NCBI GenBank assembly: GCA_964582465.1
Contig: CAZOQX010000001.1
Coordinates: 89,214 to 153,213, forward strand
Direction: 5' to 3'
Length of the DNA: 64,000 nt
Source of the DNA: an uncultured Candidatus Saccharibacteria bacterium
GTDB taxonomy: Bacteria > Patescibacteriota > Saccharimonadia > UBA4664 > CAZOQX01
Positions 6,353 through 63,528 of the stretch are shown one piece after another (the first letter of the stretch is position 1; each line of letters opens with the position of its first letter). A program made the translations under genes and the position numbers. The notes under the pieces were generated by a model. The model ran no database searches, had not been told where the DNA came from, and was given only the letters and a program-made list of their open reading frames with translations.

Positions 6353-6427
<75 letters not shown>

Positions 6428-6494
6428 GTAATAATTTGGCTTTGTTGGGCCGGTATATACGTGTTTTTATCTGTAGGAACATAATATGCTTCTA

Positions 6495-6523
6495 TTGACA
6501 TATTATGGTTCTTATGCTATTAT
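6495..6523 (+). promoter_or_regulatory. Near-consensus sigma70-type promoter: TTGACA-N17-TATTAT
   Basis: TTGACA at 6495..6500, 17-nt spacer, TATTAT at 6518..6523. Sits upstream of the high-GC gene at 6579. Confidence 0.5.
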
Positions 6524-6578
6524 TCCTCCGTTCTTAGTGTGGATGACGGGTGACCGTCTTGACAGAAAGGGGGCAGCG

Positions 6579-6971
6579 ATGCCCGCAGTTACCATGTACT
6601 ACCCACGAGGTTTCTTCGACTCCACCGACAAGGCCCGCTTCAGGCGGGACGTCAAGCAGAGCGTGGCCGGCTACATGGACGCAATCGATCCCGCAACGGG
6701 TGAGCGAACCAAGTATGGAGCCGACCCGGACGCGTTCATCGACCTCGTCCTCATCCCCTACGACCCCGACGACGCCGAGGTCACGACGCCGCTCCTTGGC
6801 ACGATTGTGACCTACGAGTGGCCCGACCGGATTGTCAACCTGCGCGACCGGATCAATGCGATCACCAACGAGGTCCGGCGGTCCCTCCCAACCGAGCTCG
6901 TACCGAGAGACCAGGAGGCCATCTCCTTCACCTTCCTCGGCAAGATGGCTGGTGCCTGGGCGGTGGCCTGA
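6579..6971 (+). CDS. Hypothetical protein (130 aa) in a high-GC island
   Basis: ATG with an AAAGGGGG RBS. Codon usage is GC-rich, unlike the flanks. Starts MPAVTMYYPRG. Confidence 0.55.
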   Translation: MPAVTMYYPRGFFDSTDKARFRRDVKQSVAGYMDAIDPATGERTKYGADPDAFIDLVLIPYDPDDAEVTTPLLGTIVTYEWPDRIVNLRDRINAITNEVRRSLPTELVPRDQEAISFTFLGKMAGAWAVA

Positions 6972-7002
6972 CCATCAGTATCCCGCTTCACGCGGCGAGA
7001 CA

Positions 7003-7034
7003 CCCGTCTCCCCCGTGGGGCGGGTTTTTCGTTT
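7003..7034 (+). terminator. Intrinsic terminator: GC-rich stem followed by TTTTTCGTTT
   Basis: CCCGTCTCCCCCGTGGGGCGGG hairpin, then a T-tract, directly after the 6579..6971 stop. Confidence 0.5.
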
Positions 7035-38334: not shown

Positions 38335-38405
38335 AGTTTGCAAAAATCAGATCACAAGTGTAACTTTTAAGCACGAACATTGAAATGTGATCAAGGGGGC
38401 TTGCA

Positions 38406-38440
38406 GGGCCAAACGAGTATCGTTCGGCCCGGTTTTCGTT
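38406..38440 (+). terminator. Intrinsic terminator
   Basis: GGGCCAAACGA-GTA-TCGTTCGGCCC stem (one mismatch), followed by GGTTTTCGTTT. Confidence 0.6.
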
Positions 38441-38471
38441 TGGCTTTGCAAGCGCTTGACTGGAGGCTACC

Positions 38472-38645
38472 GTGGCACTAAGTAGCACTTTGTATGTACG
38501 GCTGCCAGACGATCTGTACAACAGACTCAAGTCCCACTGCGACAAGGATGATCGGTCTCTGGCCAGCGCCACACGCAGGGCCGTGAGGGAGTATCTCGAC
38601 CGACATGAGGAGAGGGAGGAACGACGAGATGGCCAAGCGGTATGA
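38472..38645 (+). CDS. Ribbon-helix-helix (CopG/ParD-like) antitoxin-like small protein (57 aa); not in the ORF track
   Basis: GGAGG RBS, 5-nt spacer, GTG start. Translation VALSSTLYVRLPDDLYNRLKSHCDKDDRSLASATRRAVREYLDRHEEREERRDGQAV. High-GC. Overlaps the next gene by 17 nt. Confidence 0.6.
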   Translation: MALSSTLYVRLPDDLYNRLKSHCDKDDRSLASATRRAVREYLDRHEEREERRDGQAV

Positions 38646-38880
38646 CGAAGAGATCGCCGTGGAGGTCGCCACCACCGGGGGTATCCCTGCTTCGTTCAAA
38701 TGGCGGGGGCGGACCTACCAAGTGGTCGATGTAATCGGCCGCTGGCGGATCGAAGGCAGGTGGTGGGATGATGGTCGCGATCGCGAGTACTGGCGGGTGG
38801 AAGCCCGCGGCGGGGCGGTCTGGGATCTCTACCTCGACCGTACCACCAATGTTTGGACGCTCGAGCGGCTCTGGGACTAG
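38629..38880 (+). CDS. Hypothetical Trp/Arg-rich protein (83 aa), second gene of the high-GC cassette
   Basis: ATG inside the 3' end of the RHH gene. MAKRYDEEIAVEVATTGGIPASFKWRGRTYQVVDVIGRWRIEGRWWDD... No known toxin fold recognised. Confidence 0.5.
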   Translation: MAKRYDEEIAVEVATTGGIPASFKWRGRTYQVVDVIGRWRIEGRWWDDGRDREYWRVEARGGAVWDLYLDRTTNVWTLERLWD

Positions 38881-38890
38881 GGAGGTTCGA

Positions 38891-39649
38891 ATGGAACGCT
38901 ACTACATCGACGTACCCAGTTTCGTCTTCCACGGCTGGTCGCGCTGGCAGCCCGATTGGAAGCACTGGGCGGCCGGCTTCAACGTCCGCATGGGAGCCGA
39001 CATCGATGTCTTCGCCGGTGCCGCGGTACAAGAAGAGTCCGAGCGGGGCTTCCACTTCAGCGACTCCATTTCTCACCGCGTGCGCTTCCTGGATGTGCCG
39101 TGGAAACATCACGGTGAGTCGGCGCCGGTGACTTACCTCGATCACCAGATCTGGCTCACGCTGGACAGCCTCATTCGTGAGCACGGTTTGGACGAGGCCA
39201 TCCGGGTCTACCTCGCCAGCGGCGAGGGACAGCTTCCTGAGCTGGTCGGCGCCCCATCGCGCTGGGGCGGGCGGACGCTCCGCGTACCGGTGGATTTCAT
39301 CAGGATCTCCCGGATCGTTTCGTCGTGGCAGCACAGGTACGAATCCGTCGTCGCCACCATCGAGGTCGGCCACCATTTGGTGCTCTGGGAGGTCGAGGTC
39401 ATGCCCGCGGGTCAGCGGCCGACTCCCAAACCTGGTCTGGCGCCGGACGGACCAATCCGCGGTGGTCTACGCGACCTGATCGAGCGGCTCTACCTCAAGG
39501 ATCCGGCGGCCGTCCAGGCTATCGCCGAGCGGCACGAGTACGGCGGCAGAGACCCACGAGATCGCACGTTCACATACGCAGCTCCCGGGGTCGATCCCAA
39601 GAGCACGCCGCCGGCGCTCGAGTTCCTCCAGCCGGTCGCGGCGGGATAG
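38891..39649 (+). CDS. Hypothetical protein (252 aa), third gene of the high-GC cassette
   Basis: GGAGG RBS 5 nt before the ATG, 10 nt after the previous stop. High-GC codon usage. No recognisable domain. Confidence 0.55.
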   Translation: MERYYIDVPSFVFHGWSRWQPDWKHWAAGFNVRMGADIDVFAGAAVQEESERGFHFSDSISHRVRFLDVPWKHHGESAPVTYLDHQIWLTLDSLIREHGLDEAIRVYLASGEGQLPELVGAPSRWGGRTLRVPVDFIRISRIVSSWQHRYESVVATIEVGHHLVLWEVEVMPAGQRPTPKPGLAPDGPIRGGLRDLIERLYLKDPAAVQAIAERHEYGGRDPRDRTFTYAAPGVDPKSTPPALEFLQPVAAG

Positions 39650-39760
39650 GCGCTGGACATGTTCTACCGGGGTGGGTGGCTTTACGCTGCCCGCCCCGGA
39701 TTCGTTATTATCGACTTCAAGACGCAAGGGTTGTAAAATAATGGTATAAGCATTAGCACA

Positions 39761-41080: not shown

Positions 41081-41413
41081 ATGGCAGAGAGTATAAAAAT
41101 ACTGGTGTATCCAGCTAAGGACTTAAATGCAAGCAAGACATTCTTTAATACGTTTTTAGGCACCGAGCCCTACGCCGATGCGCCTTATTACGTTGGCTAT
41201 AAGACGGATGGGCTAGAGGTTGGCTTGGACCCGAATGGTGAGGCGGTGATTGCCTATATTGAAGTGGAAGACATCAAAGCAAGTCTGCAAACTTACCTGA
41301 GTGCGGGTGCTAGCCTGCACCAAGATGTCAAAGACGTTGGCGGCGGCCTGCTAATTGCTCAGGTTAAAGATGCCAACGGTAATGTTCTTGGCCTAAGACA
41401 ACAGCCTAAGTAA
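41081..41413 (+). CDS. Glyoxalase/bleomycin-resistance (VOC) family protein
   Basis: 110 aa. Beta-alpha-beta-beta-beta module pattern. GGAGG RBS. Confidence 0.6.
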   Translation: MAESIKILVYPAKDLNASKTFFNTFLGTEPYADAPYYVGYKTDGLEVGLDPNGEAVIAYIEVEDIKASLQTYLSAGASLHQDVKDVGGGLLIAQVKDANGNVLGLRQQPK

Positions 41414-41414
41414 T

Positions 41415-41490
41415 CTGGAGGGCCATCCGGGATTCGAACCCGGGACACGAGGCTTAAAAGGCCCCTGCTCTGCCAACTGAGCTAATGGCC
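41415..41490 (-). tRNA. tRNA-Lys (anticodon UUU)
   Basis: Reverse complement folds as GGGCCAT-TA-GCTC-AGTTGGCA-GAGC-A-GGGGC-CTTTTAA-GCCTC-GTGTC-CCGGG-TTCGAAT-CCCGG-ATGGCCC-T-CCA. Confidence 0.85.
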
Positions 41491-41624
41491 CGCGAAGGGC
41501 ACTCCATATCCTATTATATATTGCTAAAGGCTTCAATGCTGGTATTAAACTGCTTGTGCTTGGACATAGGCAAGACTATTATGAAAGCACAAGCACCTTG
41601 TTGGAAGAATCAGGAGGCGCGGAG

Positions 41625-41972
41625 ATGGCCGAAACGGTCCAATTCGAACAGCCGTGCCCGGGTTGCTCTGGCACGTTGATCCTGGGAGCGGGTAGCGAGA
41701 TCTACCTGTTTCGCGATGGTCCCCAGTTCAACTACATCTTCTCGCCTCCCTGCGACGACTGCAGCCGGCGCGTCATGGTCTTCGGGGCGGCTGACTGGAT
41801 CGTTCAGCTGATGGGAGTGGGCATCGAGCCCAAGTGGGAGGACACCGCGGGGCGCTGGGTCCAGGCCGAATGCTTCGAGGCCACCTTCGCTGCCCAGCTC
41901 AGCCAGGTCGAGCTCAGCCCGCTCCTGTTGGAGCATCAGTACTGGGGAGGATCACCGAGCGTCGTTACCTGA
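41625..41972 (+). CDS. Hypothetical CxxC...CxxC zinc-ribbon-like small protein (115 aa) in a high-GC island
   Basis: AGGAGG and GGAG RBS before the ATG. CPGC and CDDC pairs. GC-rich codons. Confidence 0.5.
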   Translation: MAETVQFEQPCPGCSGTLILGAGSEIYLFRDGPQFNYIFSPPCDDCSRRVMVFGAADWIVQLMGVGIEPKWEDTAGRWVQAECFEATFAAQLSQVELSPLLLEHQYWGGSPSVVT

Positions 41973-42186
41973 TCAACAGGGTTGCTAGCGTCACCGCGAC
42001 AAGTGGTGGCGCTTCGCCCCGAGTCTTGAAGGAAACTTAAAGATTTAGGGCGAAAGGATTAAATAATCCGCCTTTTATAGTTAGTTTCGGTCGGGATGCC
42101 GTAGATATCGTGCGCAAGTGTTTCTATACTTGGCCAGTACAGTTCCCGAGTCTCACCCTAGCGGGTGGGAGAAAGGAGGCGGACGC

Positions 42187-42573
42187 ATGGGCGACCGCAA
42201 CGCGCAGGGACTCGAGCAGCTCATCCGGCACCCGAAGGTGCTGCAGTGGGCGCGCGACGAGGTGGGAGTCGACTCGCTGTTCATCGAGCCGAGGACCTTC
42301 GGTCAGCCCACCGGGGCGACCACCAAGGGCAGCTCGAGCGGCACGGTCTCCGATCCGGAGACGTCCTACATGCTGAAGGGCGGGATGGGTGGCCAGGAGA
42401 TCTGCATCGGGGGCATCCTCGACCTGGTCACGGCCGTCTCCAGCTTCCGGGACGCGATCGGGTACACCGGGCAGATCGGCCAGCTGACCTACCAGCAGCT
42501 GCTGCAGCAGGTCGAGGTGGCCCAGGAGGAGGGGGCCAGATCGACCTCCGGCGCCCACTCCACTCGCCGCTAG
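42187..42573 (+). CDS. Hypothetical protein (128 aa) in a high-GC island
   Basis: AGGAGG RBS 7 nt before the ATG. GC-rich. No recognised family. Confidence 0.45.
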   Translation: MGDRNAQGLEQLIRHPKVLQWARDEVGVDSLFIEPRTFGQPTGATTKGSSSGTVSDPETSYMLKGGMGGQEICIGGILDLVTAVSSFRDAIGYTGQIGQLTYQQLLQQVEVAQEEGARSTSGAHSTRR

Positions 42574-42594
42574 CTCTGCGCACAACTCGGGACA

Positions 42595-42630
42595 GGGCCT
42601 CTCCGCAAGGAGGGGCCCTCCTCGTTTTTT
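42595..42630 (+). terminator. Strong intrinsic terminator
   Basis: GGGCCTCTCC-GCAA-GGAGGGGCCC 10-bp stem followed by TCCTCGTTTTTT. Confidence 0.8.
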
Positions 42631-42655
42631 GAAATCTTGGGGTCTTCATCTACTA

Positions 42656-42723
42656 TTGACAAAATTAAGCGTTAGTGGTATTATTCAAACCTAGTTGACA
42701 GTTTATGAGGTTTTCCTCATAAT
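42656..42723 (+). promoter_or_regulatory. Two tandem consensus-like promoters with a palindromic operator: TTGACA-N17-TATTAT and TTGACA-N17-CATAAT; palindrome ATGAGGTTTTCCTCAT in the second spacer
   Basis: P1 has -35 at 42656..42661 and -10 at 42679..42684. P2 has -35 at 42695..42700 and -10 at 42718..42723. Inverted repeat at 42705..42720. A third TTGACA at 42738. Confidence 0.5.
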
Positions 42724-42842
42724 TTTTGAATTGTTAATTGACATCTCCGGCTTGGGAGCCTTGCTGCCTACTTGTTAGGCGGCAGCGCTCCCAGGCTGGA
42801 ACCATTCTGGTGACAGCCGCGTACAGAAAGGAGGTCTCCGCT

Positions 42843-43019
42843 GTGAGGCCGATCTTCTTCGCGATCCCGACCATGGGGCCGCCGGGCGACCACGCCCACA
42901 CGGCGCCCAAGAGCGCGAGCTTCCAGAAGATGATGCACATCGACGTCGACGTGGCCGGCCGCGACCGCGGATCCGGGATCGAGATCGCCGGCGGCGCCGG
43001 GGCCCTCGAGACGGGCTGA
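42843..43019 (+). CDS. Small peptide gene (58 aa), high-GC
   Basis: AAGGAGG RBS, 8-nt spacer, GTG start. (V)RPIFFAIPTMGPPGDHAHTAPKSASFQKMMHIDVDVAGRDRGSGIEIAGGAGALETG. Alternative internal ATG (MGPPGD...). Confidence 0.4.
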   Translation: MRPIFFAIPTMGPPGDHAHTAPKSASFQKMMHIDVDVAGRDRGSGIEIAGGAGALETG

Positions 43020-43252
43020 CCTCATCGTGAGGTCGCTCTCGGGTGCGAGCCCGAGGGACCCCGGCAACGCGTCCACCGCTGTGCGCAATCGACGCGCGCA
43101 GCCTGACAGGAAGGAGAGGTCGAGCCAATGCGGTTCCACTTCCTCATAGGCTAGGCGACTAGGGCGCCGGCCGGGAGAAAACCGGCTAAGGCGCTATAGC
43201 AGCTCCTTTCCATGCAGGGCGTCATCACCCTCCCAGCAGGAGGACCTGTGCG

Positions 43253-43276
43253 GGGGGACCGCTTCGGCGGTCCCCC
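43253..43276 (+). other. Perfect 10-bp hairpin with TTCG tetraloop (GGGGGACCGC-TTCG-GCGGTCCCCC) in a structured non-coding region
   Basis: Read directly from the sequence. No T-tract follows. Part of a ~320-nt GC-rich non-coding stretch (43020..43340) with several hairpins. Confidence 0.6.
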
Positions 43277-43293
43277 TCGCGGGGCAACACGAA

Positions 43294-43328
43294 GCCACGT
43301 TCAATTCGAACGTGGCTTTTCGCTTTTG
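43294..43328 (+). terminator. Intrinsic terminator
   Basis: GCCACGTTC-AATTC-GAACGTGGC then TTTTCGCTTTTG. Confidence 0.8.
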
Positions 43329-43360
43329 AGAGGACGTGTTAAGATTTTTAGAAAATTGAT

Positions 43361-44803
43361 TTGGAGGGTCTATGCCCTCCTATGCATTTCAAACGCACTA
43401 CACTCGTAAGCTTATTCCTCGCCGCCACCTTAGGCGGCTTGCTGTTCGCCAAATTCGGTTGGCGCCTTAGTCCTTGGTGGCTGCCAGCTCCGCTAATCTT
43501 GTTTTCCAAACCTCTACGTCGTTCTAAAATTCTGGTGCCGGGCTTAATTCTTACCGGCCTGGCCATTGGTTTAATCCGCGGAAACGTTGCTCTCAAATCC
43601 GAGCGCGCCGTCCAGGGCTTGGTGGGCCAGAAGGTTAGCTTGGTTGGTCGGATTGCTGATGACCCCACCCAGCCCGAGACTAAGAGCTACGCGAGTTTTT
43701 CGCTCAACAATCCCCGCCTAAGTGGCCGCACGCTTCCTGGTCATTTCTACATCATTAGTTATGACACCAAGTTGAGACGATCCGAGCAAGTGGCAGTGTA
43801 CGGAAAACTGCGCCCGGGTTTTGGTAGTTTTCAAGCCGAGTTAATCGCCTCAACGACCCAAGTGCTTGATAGACGGGTGAGCTGGCTGGAGCAATTAAGG
43901 CGTAGCTTCTTTGTGGGCATGCAAACCGCCTTACCGGAGCCGCTAGGAGGGCTAGCCATCGGACTATTGGTTGGCAGCAAATCACTCCTACCCAAAACCC
44001 TACAGGCGGAGCTAACGGCGGTGGGGCTCGCCCACTTAATTGCGGTGTCGGGCTATAACTTAACCATTATTGTAAACGCGGTCCGAAATTTGCTCAGGCG
44101 CGGCTCGAAGTTCATGCGAACGGCCGTATCGGGCTGGCTGATCGCAGGCTTTGTGATTGTGAGCGGGGCGAGCCCCTCGATACTGAGAGCGGCAGTGGTA
44201 GCAGGCCTAATGCTCGCGGCGGATTACTACGGCCGGGCTGTTCGTCCCCTGGTCTTAATTTTGCTGGCAGCCGCGGCGACTGCTTTTATTAATCCGGAGA
44301 ATTTATGGCGTGATGTCGGCTGGCAACTATCCTTCCTGGCCTTCTTTGGCATCTTGGTAATCGCGCCAATTTTTACGGCTAAGCTCCACGGCCGGGCCAT
44401 CTTTCTTAAACAGATCGCACTCGAATCTTTGGCGGCTCAAATCATGACACTACCGCTGATATTGGTAGTTTTCGGTCAGCTCTCCGTGGTCTCGCCGCTG
44501 GCGAACTTATTGATATTACCGCTCGTGCCTCTGGCCATGCTCTTTAGCATGATCGCAGGCCTAGCCGGAATGCTCTGGCCGCTTGGCTCGGGGTGGTTGG
44601 GTTGGCCGGCGCTGATTTTGCTCGAAGTAATGTTAAGCGTGGTGGGGATACTGCACCAGCCGCACTGGGCTAGTTTGCAGCTAACTGCCGCCTGGCCAGC
44701 CGCTGTTGCAATTTATGCTTGCTTTGTAGCATGTCTACTTATGCGGCAGTGGTCGAACGGGCGGAATCTCAAGCAGTTTAGTATAATTGAAGGTGATAAA
44801 TAA
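43361..44803 (+). CDS. comEC: Competence protein ComEC/Rec2 (membrane channel domain only; no metallo-beta-lactamase domain)
   Basis: Multi-TM. Competence-domain hallmark AVGLAHLIAVSGYNLTIIV. 480 aa is short for ComEC. The true start may be M8 (43382). Confidence 0.75.
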   Translation: MEGLCPPMHFKRTTLVSLFLAATLGGLLFAKFGWRLSPWWLPAPLILFSKPLRRSKILVPGLILTGLAIGLIRGNVALKSERAVQGLVGQKVSLVGRIADDPTQPETKSYASFSLNNPRLSGRTLPGHFYIISYDTKLRRSEQVAVYGKLRPGFGSFQAELIASTTQVLDRRVSWLEQLRRSFFVGMQTALPEPLGGLAIGLLVGSKSLLPKTLQAELTAVGLAHLIAVSGYNLTIIVNAVRNLLRRGSKFMRTAVSGWLIAGFVIVSGASPSILRAAVVAGLMLAADYYGRAVRPLVLILLAAAATAFINPENLWRDVGWQLSFLAFFGILVIAPIFTAKLHGRAIFLKQIALESLAAQIMTLPLILVVFGQLSVVSPLANLLILPLVPLAMLFSMIAGLAGMLWPLGSGWLGWPALILLEVMLSVVGILHQPHWASLQLTAAWPAAVAIYACFVACLLMRQWSNGRNLKQFSIIEGDK

Positions 44804-44811
44804 GAGCGCTT

Positions 44812-45555
44812 ATGTCGGGTCATTCTAAATGGGCGGGGATTAAACATCAGAAAGCAATCGCTGACGCTAGACGCGGGCAGGCTTTTACGAAGGTTGCAAA
44901 TCTGCTGGTGCTTGCAGCCCGGCAGGGTGGCGCAAACCCCGAATCTAACTTCAAGCTGCGCTTGGCCATCGCTAAAGCTAAAGATGCCAATATGCCTAAT
45001 GCTAACATTGAACGAGCGATTCAGAAGGGCGCTGGCGGTGGAGCTGACGCGACGGTTGAGGAAATTTTATATGAAGGCTATGGCCCAGGCGGCACGGCCT
45101 TTCTGATTGAAGTTGCAACCGATAACCGTAACCGGGCGGCGGCCAGCGTTCGCTCCACGCTCAGTAAGCACGGTGGCCGCATGGCCGAGTCCGGCTCGGT
45201 GAGTTACCAGTTTGAGCAAAAAGGTGTGATTCAACTGGTCGCGTCCGATCCGGAGCAAGCCGCCCTGGACGCCATTGAAGCTGGTGCGAGCGACATTGAT
45301 GAAGGTGAGGGGGAGTTAACTGTTTACACCCTGCCGCAGCAGCTAGAAGCAGTCCGGGGCAAACTGCAGGTGGCCGGCTACGAAGTAAAATCAGCGGCCC
45401 TAGAGTTTGTGGCGAAGACCCCACTCACAATTTCGGATCCGAAGGTAGCCGCAAGCGTCATTAAACTTGCCGGCGCGCTGGATGAGCTGGACGATGTAGC
45501 GGCCACGCATGCTAATTTTGAAATTGATAACGCGTCATTGGAACAGCTCAGTTGA
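44812..45555 (+). CDS. yebC: YebC/PmpR family DNA-binding transcriptional regulator
   Basis: MSGHSKWAGIKHQKAIADARRGQ N-terminus is diagnostic. 247 aa. Confidence 0.9.
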   Translation: MSGHSKWAGIKHQKAIADARRGQAFTKVANLLVLAARQGGANPESNFKLRLAIAKAKDANMPNANIERAIQKGAGGGADATVEEILYEGYGPGGTAFLIEVATDNRNRAAASVRSTLSKHGGRMAESGSVSYQFEQKGVIQLVASDPEQAALDAIEAGASDIDEGEGELTVYTLPQQLEAVRGKLQVAGYEVKSAALEFVAKTPLTISDPKVAASVIKLAGALDELDDVAATHANFEIDNASLEQLS

Positions 45556-46037
45556 AAGTTCTGGGAATCGACCCTGGCACGGCTACGACCGGCTTTGGCG
45601 TGGTAGAACAAACCAGCCGCACGCTCACATTCATTGATGCTGGAGTAATTCAGACTTCCAAAGAGTCACTCATGCCGGATCGTCTAGAAACTATCTTTGC
45701 GGAGCTAACCGAGCTAGTGCTACAACATCGTCCGGACTTTATGGCGGTTGAGCAGCTGTTTTTTGCCCGTAATGTCACGACGGCTATGACAGTGGGGCAG
45801 GCTCGTGGCGTTATTCTGCTGGTGGCGGCTAAGCAACATGTGCCGGTGAGAGAATTTACGCCGCTGCAGGTCAAAATGGCCGTGACCGGCTATGGCCAGG
45901 CCAAGAAAGATCAAGTTCAACAAATGGTGAAGAATATTCTGAAGTTAAAGGTTATTCCGAGACCCGACGACGCAGCTGATGCACTAGCGGTGGCGATCGC
46001 GGGTTCGGCACAGCTCGAGGTTGGTCGTGGCGCCTAG
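45552..46037 (+). CDS. ruvC: Holliday junction resolvase RuvC
   Basis: MKVLGIDPGTATTGFGVVE with the catalytic Asp. 161 aa. Overlaps the yebC stop. Confidence 0.9.
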   Translation: MKVLGIDPGTATTGFGVVEQTSRTLTFIDAGVIQTSKESLMPDRLETIFAELTELVLQHRPDFMAVEQLFFARNVTTAMTVGQARGVILLVAAKQHVPVREFTPLQVKMAVTGYGQAKKDQVQQMVKNILKLKVIPRPDDAADALAVAIAGSAQLEVGRGA

Positions 46038-46839
46038 GCCTAATTTTAGCCCAGCGCTGATTCGGTCCGTCGCGGATTACGCCGAGAGGCTCGGTTTTAC
46101 CGGCAAAGTCGGTATTAATTCGCAGGCAATCAATAGCCGCTCAATTAGGAGAATGCTACGCAACATGCCTGACTATACTTTTGGTATCACTGCGATTGAA
46201 CAAGCTGTTGGTCGTAGAGAACTCAAGGCCTCAAAAGTCCGGGAAATTTTGGAGACTGCATCTGGGCTCAAGGTGCCGCGTTTCAACACCGCGGCCGCCG
46301 GTAGTTTTGAGCCGACTCAATCTGCCGCCGAGCTGCTGACAGCTGTGAGGCAGATCGCAAAGTCGGCTCAAGCTAGGGAAAAAATCATTTTCGCGACCGG
46401 GCATCCAGGCTCATTGCTCGGCTTTATGCAAATCTTAAGTGCTTGGGCTAAGGAGTTGGGCGGCGAGATTTGGCAGCTTAGTGCTGGTTTCCAAGCCGTG
46501 CGACATCGCAAACTTTTCATTGATGCGGTCGGGGATGTTATCGTCACTTCCGATAGTGCCTCGGCCTGGCATACCCACCGGCCAATTTTTATGGATGTAA
46601 TCCTCGCATCTGTACAGCCGGATTTGGTGGTGGCTGATCATGGTTTTACCGGGGCGGCCTTGAACGCTAATATTCCCTCGATTGGAATTTACGACACCAA
46701 CGACCCAGCGCTGCCAGTAGCGCAGTACCTTGGCCTGCCACTCACGGCTGTACCACTAAACGATAATCGGCTAAACTTACGAGGCACCGAACTGGCTAAA
46801 TTTGTAATCCAAAAAATGGCAGACGAAAATGCAATATGA
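46021..46839 (+). CDS. Hypothetical protein (272 aa)
   Basis: ORF overlapping the ruvC end. Motifs ATGHPGSLLGF and VVADHGF. No family assigned. Confidence 0.45.
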   Translation: MVVAPRPNFSPALIRSVADYAERLGFTGKVGINSQAINSRSIRRMLRNMPDYTFGITAIEQAVGRRELKASKVREILETASGLKVPRFNTAAAGSFEPTQSAAELLTAVRQIAKSAQAREKIIFATGHPGSLLGFMQILSAWAKELGGEIWQLSAGFQAVRHRKLFIDAVGDVIVTSDSASAWHTHRPIFMDVILASVQPDLVVADHGFTGAALNANIPSIGIYDTNDPALPVAQYLGLPLTAVPLNDNRLNLRGTELAKFVIQKMADENAI

Positions 46840-59029: not shown

Positions 59030-59081
59030 GTTCTTATTTTAGCGTAAGCGTTTTGATTAAGCTAATGGACTAAAAAGGCTG

Positions 59082-59115
59082 AGGGCCGCCAACTCGGGTG
59101 AGTTGGCGGCCCTCA
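59082..59115 (-). terminator. Intrinsic terminator for the dnaN-like gene (perfect 15-bp stem)
   Basis: GAGGGCCGCCAACTC-GGGT-GAGTTGGCGGCCCTC. On the minus strand it is followed by AGCCTTTTTAG. Confidence 0.65.
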
Positions 59116-59131
59116 TGGGCGCTCGGGTGTC

Positions 59132-60238
59132 CTAGCCCACCGGAGCTGGTATGCGGACGGGCATCACGATGTAGGTGAAGTCCGCGCTTTCGCCGCGAAT
59201 GACGCCCGGCTTCAGGCCGTCGCGAACCTGAATGGTCGCCTCATCATCACCAACTGCCAGTAGGCCGTCGGCGAAGTAGCCAGGGTTGAAGGCCACCGTC
59301 ATGTCCTCGCCTTCGTAGGTACCCTCGATGGCCTCGATGGCGTTGCCGAGGTCGGGCGAAGAGGAGGTCAGGCGGACGCCGAGAGCGTTGAATTCGAACC
59401 GCAGCGGGGTGTTCTCACGGGCCAGGATGCCGACTCGGTGCACGGCCGCGAGCAGGTCTCGCCGGTTGACCCTGAGCTGGTTCTCGTAGTGGTCGGGGAG
59501 CAGCTGCCGGTAGTTCGGGAACTGTCCCTCGATCAGGCGGGTGGACATGGTGAAGTCTCCACCCTCGAACCAGGTTTGGCTCGAGCCGAAGTACAGCTTG
59601 ATGTTACTCTTCGCGTCCAGGTCACCCGCCACCCGGCTCATCTCGCCGATGGCGCGGTTGGGAATGATGCAGGAGCTGTTGCTGGCGCCATCGATCGGGA
59701 GCATTCGTACGGCCAGTCGGTAGCTGTCGGTCGCGGCGAAAGCGAGCTCGCTGCCGCTCAGTTCCAGCAGGACGCCAGTCAGGGTTGGCCGGGCTTCGTC
59801 CCTGCTGGCGGCACGGGCTACCTGGGAGACGGCCAGACTGAAGTCGGCGGCCGGTACGGTGAGGATGATCCCGTCTGGTCTCTGCCAGCTCGGGAAGTCC
59901 TCGGACGGCAGCAGCCGTACCACGCCTTCGTAGGCCTGGCACAGGATGCTCGCTTGGCCTCCGTCGGCGGTGAAGGTCACCACCGCCTGGGGCAGTAATT
60001 TGACGATCTCACCGAGCAGCCTGGCCGGGATCAGCGCGACGCCGGCTTCTTCGACCTGTACGGCCAGGTTCAGCCGTGTGCTCACCTCGAGATCGGTGGT
60101 GGTCAGGACCAGCCCTCCGTCCTCGGTCGCTTCGATGTAGACGCCGGTCAGAGCTGGGATGCCGGGGCGATTGGACACGCCCCGTTGCACCGCAGCCAGA
60201 GCCTCGGCCAAGTCGTCGCGGTCTGCGCGGAACTTCAT
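59132..60238 (-). CDS. dnaN: DNA polymerase III beta subunit (sliding clamp) paralog of actinobacterial type, in a high-GC island
   Basis: MKFRADRDDLAEALAAVQRGVSNRPGIPALTGVYIEA...TDSYRLAVRMLP...EGQFPNYRQLLP...MTVAFNPGYFADGL...YIVMPVRIP closely parallel Mycobacterium-type DnaN. AAGGAGG RBS before M13. About 64 % GC. Confidence 0.85.
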   Translation of the reverse strand: MKFRADRDDLAEALAAVQRGVSNRPGIPALTGVYIEATEDGGLVLTTTDLEVSTRLNLAVQVEEAGVALIPARLLGEIVKLLPQAVVTFTADGGQASILCQAYEGVVRLLPSEDFPSWQRPDGIILTVPAADFSLAVSQVARAASRDEARPTLTGVLLELSGSELAFAATDSYRLAVRMLPIDGASNSSCIIPNRAIGEMSRVAGDLDAKSNIKLYFGSSQTWFEGGDFTMSTRLIEGQFPNYRQLLPDHYENQLRVNRRDLLAAVHRVGILARENTPLRFEFNALGVRLTSSSPDLGNAIEAIEGTYEGEDMTVAFNPGYFADGLLAVGDDEATIQVRDGLKPGVIRGESADFTYIVMPVRIPAPVG

Positions 60239-60399
60239 GCTGGGCGCCTCCTTCTGGAGTTGTGGGGTACGCACCTCTTAATAACCAACCGTACAATTTC
60301 TATGAGTTACTCGCAAGCATAAGTGTTGAGGTTGGCGTTAATATTCGTCGGAGTGTATAAATGTAAAACGAAGGTGTGAACCTACACAAGTGAGGAGTT

Positions 60400-61619: not shown

Positions 61620-62972
61620 GTGGAAGTAAGTCGCACGTTGAATTCTGACGTGCCCGAGACTATGAAGGGGGTGAATCCCTTGGTGGCTCGTCGCGACGAG
61701 ATGGAGCAGTTGGCGCCGCCCCTCAGGGGGCACCCCGATCTCCACATCGTCAAGTCGATCTCAACATCGGCGCCTCGACGACGGCGCAATTCACTGGTTA
61801 ACCAGAAGCATCGCCGCTTGCCTGTTGCTTGCACCAACGTACTGGCGCAAGAGCGAGAGGCAACCGATCCGGAGCACATTCAGGGCATCGCCAGCAACAT
61901 GGAAGAGCTAGGCATGCTCCAGGATCCGATGGCCATCATTTTCACCGAACGCACGGCACTCGAGCGCTATCTGAAATATTGGAACGCGCTCTACGCCGAT
62001 CGTGAGGTCAGTGAAGGGGTCTTCTGGCATCGTGAAGTGGAAGACTTGGTCGAGTGGACGGGGCACCCCGGCTGCTGGATCATCTTAGTCTTCGGTGAGC
62101 ATCGCTACTCAGCCCGAGTGCTGCAGGGGCGGAAGTGGATCGAAGTCAAGGTCCGCTACAACGTCCGCCCTCGCCGTGGCGCCGACATCCAGGTTTCAGA
62201 AAACAGCGCCAAGATTCCGGCACCGGAAGAGCGCGCCAAGTATCTCGACAAGTGCTGGCGCATGGACCAACTGTTGGCTCACCCGCCCACTCTCAAGACC
62301 TTCGCAAACAAGAAGAAGGTGAGTGAGCAGACCGTTCGCGACGCCATCCGGTACAGCCGGCTCCCCCAGTGGGTGGAGAAGGACCATGTCAAGAAGGGCC
62401 ATATCCGCTACCGGCACGCTGTGGAGATTGCTCGACTTGTTGGCACCGAGCACGACGAGAACCGGATGCATTACTACATCCAGCGCACCATTGTCGGTGG
62501 CTGGAAGCCGGAAGACCTGGCGAAGAAGATCAGTGAGTACCTGAAGAACCTGAAGCAGAACAGCTTCGCAATGATGGTTCAGGACCCGAGCGATGATCGT
62601 CACATCCGTGCCCTCATCGCGCGTCGTGACCTTAGGGCCACTCGCGAGGGATTGCGCTGGGCCAAGGGAGTCACCAAGGCTATCCAAGACGGCACGTTCG
62701 ACAATGTTCTGGTACCGCGAAGCGTCAGCCGTTTCCAGTATGAGCTCGCCGAGCATCTGCTGCAGGCGCTACCGCACTCGCCCAAGGGTCGGGAAGCCAG
62801 CGAGGCCATCAGGCGTGCCATGGACGACTTCCTGGTTCCGCTGCATGCGGAGATCTCGGCGCTGCTTGCCGCCAACCCGGTCGATATCGCCGAGCACGAG
62901 CGGGCTCTCATCGCTGCCGACGACGACGTGGAGAAGATCCACGCCCTCGCCGTCCTCGGAACAACCTCGTAA
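61620..62972 (+). CDS. ParB/Srx-like nuclease domain protein with C-terminal HTH (450 aa), high-GC
   Basis: ParB N-domain-like IQGIASNMEELGMLQDPMAIIF and ILVFGEHRYSARV (GERR-box-like). HTH-like KKKVSEQTVRDAIRYSRLPQWV. The true start may be an internal Met. Confidence 0.5.
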   Translation: MEVSRTLNSDVPETMKGVNPLVARRDEMEQLAPPLRGHPDLHIVKSISTSAPRRRRNSLVNQKHRRLPVACTNVLAQEREATDPEHIQGIASNMEELGMLQDPMAIIFTERTALERYLKYWNALYADREVSEGVFWHREVEDLVEWTGHPGCWIILVFGEHRYSARVLQGRKWIEVKVRYNVRPRRGADIQVSENSAKIPAPEERAKYLDKCWRMDQLLAHPPTLKTFANKKKVSEQTVRDAIRYSRLPQWVEKDHVKKGHIRYRHAVEIARLVGTEHDENRMHYYIQRTIVGGWKPEDLAKKISEYLKNLKQNSFAMMVQDPSDDRHIRALIARRDLRATREGLRWAKGVTKAIQDGTFDNVLVPRSVSRFQYELAEHLLQALPHSPKGREASEAIRRAMDDFLVPLHAEISALLAANPVDIAEHERALIAADDDVEKIHALAVLGTTS

Positions 62973-63105: not shown

Positions 63106-63528
63106 TTATTGAGCTTGGCTTGTAACCTCGTAGGTCGCGGGCGGAACGTTGATCTGTTTGTCGCTGGTGTTCTCCAGCGTCGCGTCTAGCTTGTAGCTAG
63201 TACAGTCGGTTCCGGTACAACCGGCGGGGGTGTAAACGTAGCTTTGACCGCTCTTCGGGTCGCTGGGCATAGCCTTAATGTACTTTGGTGTCAAAGTACT
63301 AGAGAGGCCAGCGTAGTCACCGGATGGGTAGGCCTCGTTATCAGCGTGATACGCTTCCAACGCGGTCTGGGTCTGGCGCAGGTCATTCTTACGCTGAGCG
63401 TCACGAGCCCGTTGCGGGCCGGAAGCTAGATTGGGAACGATCAAGACGGCCAAAATACCGATGATCACAATGACGACCAGAAGCTCGAGCAGCGTAAAAC
63501 CGCCTTGCTTCTTGAGTGCTCTAAGCAT
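63106..63528 (-). CDS. pilA: Major type IV pilin (PilA-like)
   Basis: MLRALKKQGGFTLLELLVVIVIIGILAVLIVPNL prepilin leader. Cys pair near the C-terminus. AAGGAGG RBS. The longer ORF-track start is unlikely. Confidence 0.8.
   Translation of the reverse strand: MLRALKKQGGFTLLELLVVIVIIGILAVLIVPNLASGPQRARDAQRKNDLRQTQTALEAYHADNEAYPSGDYAGLSSTLTPKYIKAMPSDPKSGQSYVYTPAGCTGTDCTSYKLDATLENTSDKQINVPPATYEVTSQAQ

Follow-up and report, generated by a model that had tools for sequence, protein, structure and literature searches.

What a gene of only 58 codons is doing behind two near-consensus promoters and a perfect palindrome, in DNA much richer in G and C than its surroundings, is the question raised by a locus on contig CAZOQX010000001.1 of an uncultured Candidatus Saccharibacteria bacterium (assembly GCA_964582465.1). 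The locus lies in a stretch of 64,000 nucleotides of this contig (the window; all positions are counted from its first letter), between a transfer RNA gene, tRNA-Lys(UUU), on one side and comEC-yebC-ruvC on the other. The window has a guanine-plus-cytosine (GC) content of ~52%, and the closest kin of its housekeeping genes are Saccharibacteria and other Patescibacteria. A preliminary description, made from the sequence, took the locus for a single foreign island linked to the tRNA. The foreign composition is borne out by our analysis, but the stretch is better read as three separate transcription units on the plus strand, A, B, and C, than as an island whose genes are driven together. The term moron denotes a lone open reading frame (ORF) that is bracketed by a promoter and a terminator of its own and differs in composition from its neighbors (PMC4378225), and we consider it fairly probable that the three units are moron-like in this sense: self-contained expression cassettes, acquired horizontally from a donor of ~70% GC by a host of ~52% GC.

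One line of evidence is a mosaic of composition that follows the anatomy of the units. Each has four parts, namely an AT-rich promoter spacer, a GC-rich block, one ORF, and terminal hairpins. The three GC-rich blocks (41601-42020, 63% GC; 42141-42625, 68.5%; 42746-43320, 62-72%) are separated by spacers of first 42% and then 30% GC, the promoter spacers overall ranging from 30 to 42%, and composition switches back after each terminator. A block begins near the predicted transcription start, at most ~20 nucleotides (nt) away where a promoter is predicted, and it includes the 5′ hairpin and the AGGAGG ribosome-binding site. Thus the GC content does rise beyond tRNA-Lys, as first noticed, but not directly at the tRNA, from which the first block is separated by a 109-nt spacer of 41% GC (Table 1).

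Codon usage and periodicity set the three ORFs apart both from the rest of the window and from their own flanks. GC content at third codon positions (GC3) is 0.81 (0.81-0.82) in A, 0.95 in B, and 0.98 in C, compared with 0.586 ± 0.073 among the long ORFs of the window and 0.57 for native genes, and none of 20,000 shuffles reached the three-base periodicity of any of the three (p < 5e-5). No periodicity was found in the spacer between A and B (p = 0.98), in the leader of C (p = 0.91), or in the 3′ region of C (p = 0.06-0.59). Folding energies show the reverse distribution: z-scores are -5.0 for the C leader (42730-42850), -7.5 for the C 3′ region (43017-43330; -167 kcal/mol vs. -129 ± 5 in shuffles), and -6.2 for the 3′ end of A, vs. 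+0.45 for ORF C and -0.46 for 314 nt inside B. Excess RNA structure is confined to the untranslated parts and coding signal to the ORFs. The G·U pairs of the C leader hairpin and the T-runs behind the terminators indicate that this RNA is read on the plus strand. Additionally, the near-saturated GC3 of B and C implies little drift in composition since acquisition.

Unit C carries the strongest control region of the three. Its tandem promoters, P1 and P2, each match the consensus at 11 of 12 positions, in agreement with the preliminary description, and matches of at least 11/12 number four on both strands of the 64 kb, where local shuffles predict 0.5. The other two lie upstream of a native pilin gene and upstream of a GC-rich orphan beside tRNA-Met; the former implies that the host uses this class of promoter for strong genes, and the latter that such cassettes recur. 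Transcription from P2 would start near 42728-42730. A third TTGACA had also been noted; the hexamer is present at 42739-42744, but it has no -10 partner and falls within the predicted P2 transcript. The inverted repeat reported in the second spacer is indeed perfect, although longer than reported, and its 20 base pairs (bp), TTATGAGG-TTTT-CCTCATAA, make it a plausible candidate operator. The proposed search for further copies, run within the window, found the palindrome once, with neither a second copy nor a cognate regulator there. In RNA transcribed from P1, the palindrome is predicted to fold into a weak hairpin resembling a terminator (-11.6 kcal/mol over a 46-nt stretch).

Downstream of P2, a leader hairpin precedes the ORF. 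Four of its pairs are G·U, which correspond to A·C mismatches on the other strand, so that it can form only in plus-strand RNA, where it may act as a stabilizer or be a target of RNase III. The 58-codon GC-rich ORF is present as described, and G or C ends 57 of its 58 sense codons (shuffle p < 5e-5). Its product is rich in Gly, Ala, and Pro, has an isoelectric point of 6.2, contains no Cys and only six Ser and Thr residues together, and is predicted to be soluble, without a transmembrane segment (the maximum over 19-residue Kyte-Doolittle windows is 0.26). From its codon statistics we conclude that ORF C codes for a genuine protein, or did so until very recently, and that on both sides it is flanked by structured non-coding RNA. 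A longer gene, frameshifted past the stop of ORF C, was considered and rejected, as periodicity there is no more than marginal (p = 0.06) and the frame translates into Arg/Ser-rich nonsense. An antisense ORF at 42734-42940 was likewise rejected; it has neither promoter nor ribosome-binding site, and a GC3 near 1 leaves TTA, CTA, and TCA missing among the sense codons, so that an in-register antisense frame stays open. The ~300 nt of structured sequence expected behind the ORF were recovered with their UUCG-loop hairpin and terminator. Within this 3′ region an 8-codon mini-ORF (MRFHFLIG, 43128-43154) stands behind a strong Shine-Dalgarno-like GGAAGGAGAGG, the two together spanning 43109-43154; it could be a chance occurrence or a leader peptide.

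Table 1. Coordinates of the three units, of the adjoining tRNA-Lys, and of a related cassette beside tRNA-Met.
Feature	Position	Strand	Details
tRNA-Lys (anticodon UUU)	41416-41491	-	ARAGORN; Rfam tRNA 67.3 bits; 5′ end towards the cassettes
Spacer between tRNA-Lys and unit A, 109 nt	41492-41600	+	41% GC; holds only the weak promoter-like site for A
Unit A promoter-like site	41521-41548	+	TTGCTA-16-TATTAA with TG; by eye, below promoter-scan threshold
Unit A 5′ leader hairpin	41551-41595	+	11-bp outer stem by RNA folding; 91-nt leader z only -1.9
ORF A, 115 amino acids (aa)	41625-41972	+	Acidic orphan with CPGC...CDDC motifs; AGGAGG 7 nt before ATG
Unit A 3′ hairpin stack, then weak T-run	41987-42078	+	Folding of 41968-42075, z -6.2
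Unit B promoter-like site	42102-42130	+	TAGATA-17-TATACT; 9/12 vs. consensus
Unit B 5′ hairpin	42151-42170	+	8 bp; just before the ribosome-binding site
ORF B, 128 aa	42187-42573	+	Orphan; AAAGGAGG (AGGAGG type) 7 nt before ATG
Unit B intrinsic terminator	42594-42628	+	Stem 42594-42619, 11 bp, GCAA loop, T-run
Unit C promoter P1	42656-42684	+	TTGACA-17-TATTAT, extended -10 TG; 11/12
Unit C promoter P2	42695-42723	+	TTGACA-17-CATAAT; 11/12
Unit C perfect palindrome, 20 bp	42703-42722	.	TTATGAGG-TTTT-CCTCATAA; spans P2 spacer and -10
Unit C leader hairpin	42746-42800	+	23 bp around one C·C mismatch; 4 G·U
Unit C Shine-Dalgarno	42827-42834	+	AAAGGAGG; 8 nt before GTG
ORF C, 58 codons	42843-43019	+	GTG start, TGA stop
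Unit C non-coding 3′ region, ~270 nt	43017-43290	+	~7 hairpins
Unit C UUCG-loop hairpin	43253-43276	+	GGGGGACCGC-TTCG-GCGGTCCCCC; within a 17-bp helix, 43245-43283
Unit C intrinsic terminator	43291-43329	+	Stem 43291-43319, 12 bp, then TTTTCGCTTTTG
tRNA-Met	6353-6427		Cassette directly after (6428-7030)
Orphan MPAV..., 130 aa	6579-6971		GC3 0.83

Units A and B share the design. Both genes had been described as GC-rich with strong ribosome-binding sites and as ending at a strong terminator behind B, and all of this holds. Their products could not be placed by structure: single-sequence AlphaFold2 models reach a predicted local distance difference test (pLDDT) score of 34 for A and of 53 for B, and both are unusable and too poor for a fold search. 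The Rfam family BjrC68 has a sub-threshold match (23.7 bits, cut-off 39), which covers the B terminator hairpin alone.

Searches by sequence gave the same picture of orphan genes. A, B, and C are each a singleton cluster found on one contig, and in a word-indexed search of 5.8 billion protein clusters they matched only themselves. A full HMMER search with ORF B against 1.8 billion representatives returned three long repeat proteins (a eukaryote-like repeat protein, an RTX protein, and an FN3 protein), which were rejected as spurious because their scores are summed from many weak stretches in different parts of B. Pfam, PHROGs, NCBIfam, and PADLOC gave nothing significant for any of the three; the only weak matches are DUF5570 for B (E = 0.085) and one PHROG for A (E = 0.019), with no PHROG for B or C. 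No relatives were obtained by blastn and tblastn against phages and plasmids or by peptide scans of IMG/VR, and a sequence search of the PDB gave no match. At the RNA level, Rfam 15 at gathering threshold found nothing but the tRNA near the cassettes, and at E ≤ 10 over 41400-43500 it added only the BjrC68 match and placed none on the C 3′ region; no Rfam family explains the region of unit C, an outcome that the preliminary description had asked to see checked. The exact 24-mer hairpin is not in IMG/VR, and no further copy of a hairpin occurs in the 64-kb window or in 92 fetched loci.

How exceptional is this design? The preliminary description called it unusual, an assessment that does not survive inspection of the rest of the window, where the cassette design is seen at least six times, counting A, B, and C. 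At least three further GC-rich units (6579-6971, 38472-39649, and 59132-60274) each have a promoter-like site in a low-GC spacer and a terminator hairpin. In the cassette beside tRNA-Met, the promoter (TTGACA-17-TATTAT, 6495-6523) is followed by a small 5′ hairpin, AAAGGGGG, the ORF, and a strong terminator, and its 130-aa product has no relative in Pfam, NCBIfam, PDB, or IMG/VR. In the block at 38399-39700 (64% GC), a gene for a ribbon-helix-helix protein (38472-38642) is followed by one for a DUF6504 protein (38629-38877, E = 1.5e-14) and by one for a 252-aa orphan (38891-39649), with an 18-nt inverted repeat in front (38399-38453) and a 14-bp hairpin at the end of the block (39667-39699). 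The third, at 59132-60274 on the minus strand, encodes a complete DnaN sliding clamp with three Pfam domains, a GC3 of 0.82, and 65% GC; its cassette (59075-60399) has a promoter-like site at 60380-60352 and a 16-bp terminator at 59115-59080, and the genes around it encode type IV pilins. Phage clamps reach only ~30% identity to this DnaN, and its best solved relatives are PDB entries 3P16, 3RB9, 4TR7, and 5AH2, which we take to be mycobacterial clamps. Because of these clamps, weak evidence in themselves, and because of the level of GC3, the donor was probably of Actinobacteria type or one of its mobile elements.

Some other features of the window deserve mention. A 450-aa ORF (61620-62972) with a GC3 of 0.75 and no Pfam or NCBIfam match lies between the DnaN cassette and a pilin gene. 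That native type IV pilin-like gene (GFTLLELLVVIVIIGILA, 63106-63525, minus strand) has the promoter TTGACA-18-TATACT (63608-63579, 11/12) and an AAGGAGG, and can serve within the window as a benchmark of strong native promoters. Between 12974 and 29000, on the minus strand, six abutting ORFs of 703-1134 aa have, unusually, a GC content at second codon positions (~0.58) that exceeds that at first positions (~0.44); two of the six were tested against Pfam and had no match, and the ORFs may encode a single family of proteins, very large and of surface or repeat type.

The placement of the cassettes was examined at both of their borders. An independent Logan assembly of run SRR9179560 covers 41462-46712 at 100% identity, so the arrangement is not a binning or assembly chimera. 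The tRNA-Lys gene is a neighbor that lies outside the cassettes, and its promoter is probably located in 41492-41600 on the opposite strand. On the other side, comEC starts at 43382, 53 nt beyond the end of the unit C terminator. Relatives of the flanking genes are distant: YebC relatives in GTDB genomes show ~50% identity (at most 52% among the matches listed), and ComEC relatives in JGI metagenomes at best ≤47%, so that the site offers no empty-site or synteny comparison. The cassette sequence was found in none of the 92 fetched loci, and islands homologous to the cassettes are not known. Four distant Saccharibacteria-like contigs (L084, L087, L089, and L090) have tRNA-Lys(UUU) upstream of comEC on the same strand, with a gap between ~90 nt (L090, directly upstream) and ~5 kb (L087). 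In the window, by contrast, tRNA-Lys and comEC have opposite orientations, a sign that the tRNA-Lys/comEC junction may have been rearranged locally.

Taken as moron-like cassettes, the units could work as follows, with C as the example. Host RNA polymerase would start transcription at the tandem promoters P1 and P2, and a dimeric DNA-binding protein could silence P2 through the 20-bp palindrome that overlaps its -10 element. The predicted messenger RNA (mRNA) of ~600 nt would open with a leader of ~114 nt, whose long hairpin probably sets stability or RNase III processing, and the strong Shine-Dalgarno sequence would direct translation of a soluble protein of 58 residues. The ~300-nt stack of GC-rich hairpins may shield the 3′ end of the mRNA, and the final intrinsic terminator would insulate comEC. 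Our best guess for the proteins, by analogy with most morons, is an accessory or conflict-related role.

Several observations weigh against this interpretation. First, expression of the cassettes is predicted from sequence signals, and the promoter-like sites are weak for A (8/12, found by eye) and for B (9/12). Second, the start codon of ORF C and its Shine-Dalgarno sequence lie partly inside predicted local structure. Third, the cassettes lie outside a prophage, with no phage gene nearby by Pfam and PHROGs; no homologue was found for A, B, or C; and no insertion mechanism is visible in the form of repeats, an integrase, or a transposase. Finally, little drift since acquisition means that the AT-rich promoter spacers cannot be donor DNA that has drifted, which leaves the mosaic unexplained: either the donor element was already mosaic, or foreign segments were placed behind host-type promoters.

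Other explanations can be considered. One is that the stretch is inert debris, left by a decayed mobile element or by DNA acquired through competence, in which the promoters are relics or chance matches and ORF C is a truncated piece of a longer gene. The stretch adjoins comEC and retains no mobility genes, the three proteins are orphans without a confident predicted fold, and past the stop of ORF C a marginal periodicity persists in the +1 frame, with G or C ending 19 of the first 20 codons (p ~0.06). However, the ORFs are intact with optimal ribosome-binding sites, structure and coding signal separate cleanly, and two 11/12 promoters within 70 nt contrast with the 0.5 expected per 64 kb. Debris also fits poorly with the repetition of the cassette design, which the window shows in six or more units, one of them carrying a complete DnaN. 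We regard this explanation as unlikely.

A second possibility is that unit C works as RNA, such that its ~600-nt transcript, or a processed 3′ fragment of it, is a structured regulatory RNA to which the ORF is incidental or adds a second function. The strong excess structure of the leader and 3′ region, a transcript that is ~70% non-coding, and the service of strong tandem promoters to so small an ORF are all in line with such a role. That ORF nevertheless has a saturated foreign codon signal, a full AAAGGAGG, and no excess structure of its own, and the C RNA matches no Rfam family even at E ≤ 10. No second copy or homologue that would permit a covariation analysis was found in the 64-kb window, the 92 loci, or IMG/VR. 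GC-rich hairpin stacks are also found behind ORF A and may simply be 3′ ends typical of the donor. A primary role as RNA seems distinctly improbable to us.

The short distance to comEC raises a third explanation, in which the C 3′ region and its terminator are a cis-acting leader, similar to an attenuator or riboswitch, that sets read-through from P1 and P2 into comEC-yebC-ruvC, with the mini-ORF as a possible leader peptide. The composition of the region, which belongs to the foreign block and is unlike that of comEC, speaks against it, as do the absence of riboswitch and leader families from the Rfam results, of an identified alternative antiterminator pairing, and of such a leader from the relatives. 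In its favor, no promoter match lies in the 53 nt between terminator and comEC, the mini-ORF stands behind its GGAAGGAGAGG, and in distant relatives tRNA-Lys precedes comEC on the same strand, directly in one of them, so comEC may normally rely on upstream transcription. On this evidence we give a comEC leader little credence.

A more radical proposal concerns the origin of the mosaic. In at least six units the GC-rich block extends from within ~20 nt of the predicted transcription start to the terminator and the promoters lie in host-like AT-rich DNA, and one could imagine that an epibiotic Saccharibacterium captures genes by a route not yet described. Promoterless, transcript-sized, high-GC segments, possibly from its host, would repeatedly come to lie downstream of promoters of host type, and the competence and pilus machinery encoded nearby might have taken them up. 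Unit C would then be a captured segment whose long structured RNA is functional beside the protein. We see only a slim chance that this is correct. The idea that ORF C is the precursor of a ribosomally synthesized and post-translationally modified peptide (RiPP) or a type I toxin peptide, which the preliminary description drew from a small, strongly promoted gene on foreign DNA, deserves hardly any weight, since the product has no Cys, only six Ser and Thr residues, and no hydrophobic stretch of transmembrane grade, Pfam, NCBIfam, and PADLOC link neither A nor B to a family of modifying enzymes and no such enzyme is recognizable nearby, and 42730-43340 holds no minus-strand promoter match for an antisense RNA, the open frame at 42734-42940 being expected from a GC3 near 1.

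If the moron-like cassettes are expressed, high-GC orphan genes of very recent acquisition are both retained and strongly transcribed in a reduced, Saccharibacteria-like genome. The lineage lives on Actinobacteria of high GC content, and the products would then be candidates for roles in host interaction or phage conflict. The abrupt change from host-like promoter to foreign transcribed block, repeated across the window, also poses the question of how such genes are acquired.

Comparison with known systems places the locus more precisely. Atypical GC content and orphan genes beside a tRNA are features that the units share with tRNA-linked islands. However, such islands insert at the 3′ end of the tRNA, whereas the units adjoin its 5′ end, and the islands form one block, whereas composition here alternates unit by unit. 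No tyrosine or serine integrase ORF occurs between 38000 and 46000, and comparison of the tRNA-Lys region with either boundary revealed no shared 10-mer, no significant repeats, and no direct repeat of the tRNA end. The association with the tRNA, which the preliminary description had pointed out, looks incidental. Two kinds of candidate mobility signature were discarded: short matches considered as attachment sites or repeats, such as the 13-mers GTCCAATTCGAAC (41637) and GTTCAATTCGAAC (43299), are at chance level, with ~10 such pairs expected in 6 kb, and, as regards hairpin ends of the IS200/IS605 type, the 5′ hairpin of a unit shows no sequence relationship to its 3′ hairpin.

Two further systems resemble unit C in particular. 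In acr-aca operons, a strong promoter with an inverted-repeat operator drives small orphan genes, and unit C similarly combines foreign DNA, a near-consensus promoter overlapped by a perfect inverted repeat, and a small orphan ORF. Unlike in these operons, the ORF is followed by hairpins, a terminator, and then comEC instead of a helix-turn-helix (Aca-like) gene; its product has no homology to known Acr proteins and no PADLOC or PHROG match, so that the likeness is one of promoter logic only. Dual-function and 3′UTR-derived (from the 3′ untranslated region) small RNAs also combine a small ORF with a mostly structured transcript and a terminator, but unit C has no conserved seed, Rfam match, or homologues, and a stable fragment of its transcript is hypothetical.

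The closest parallel remains the morons of lambdoid and Mu-like phages, in which a single ORF lies between its own promoter and terminator, a sequence pattern that the units match. Sequence matches to a promoter and a factor-independent terminator occur in each unit, most strongly in C, with a 9/12 promoter-like site in B and a weak promoter and hairpins with a weak T-run in A. The composition differs from that of the neighbors as in morons, with GC3 of 0.81-0.98 vs. 0.586 ± 0.073 and blocks of 62-72% vs. 52% GC. As with the units, the mechanism by which morons are acquired and the functions of most of their genes are unknown. Morons, in contrast, sit between phage genes, whereas the units are chromosomal, flanked by tRNA-Lys, comEC, yebC, and ruvC, and have no significant PHROG match and no phage or viral-contig relatives; their 5′ and 3′ untranslated regions are also unusually long and structured by comparison. 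The cassettes are moron-like in how they are built to work but are not classifiable as morons, and the locus falls into a well-known category, that of orphan accessory genes of recent acquisition with their own expression signals, and does not constitute a new type of system.

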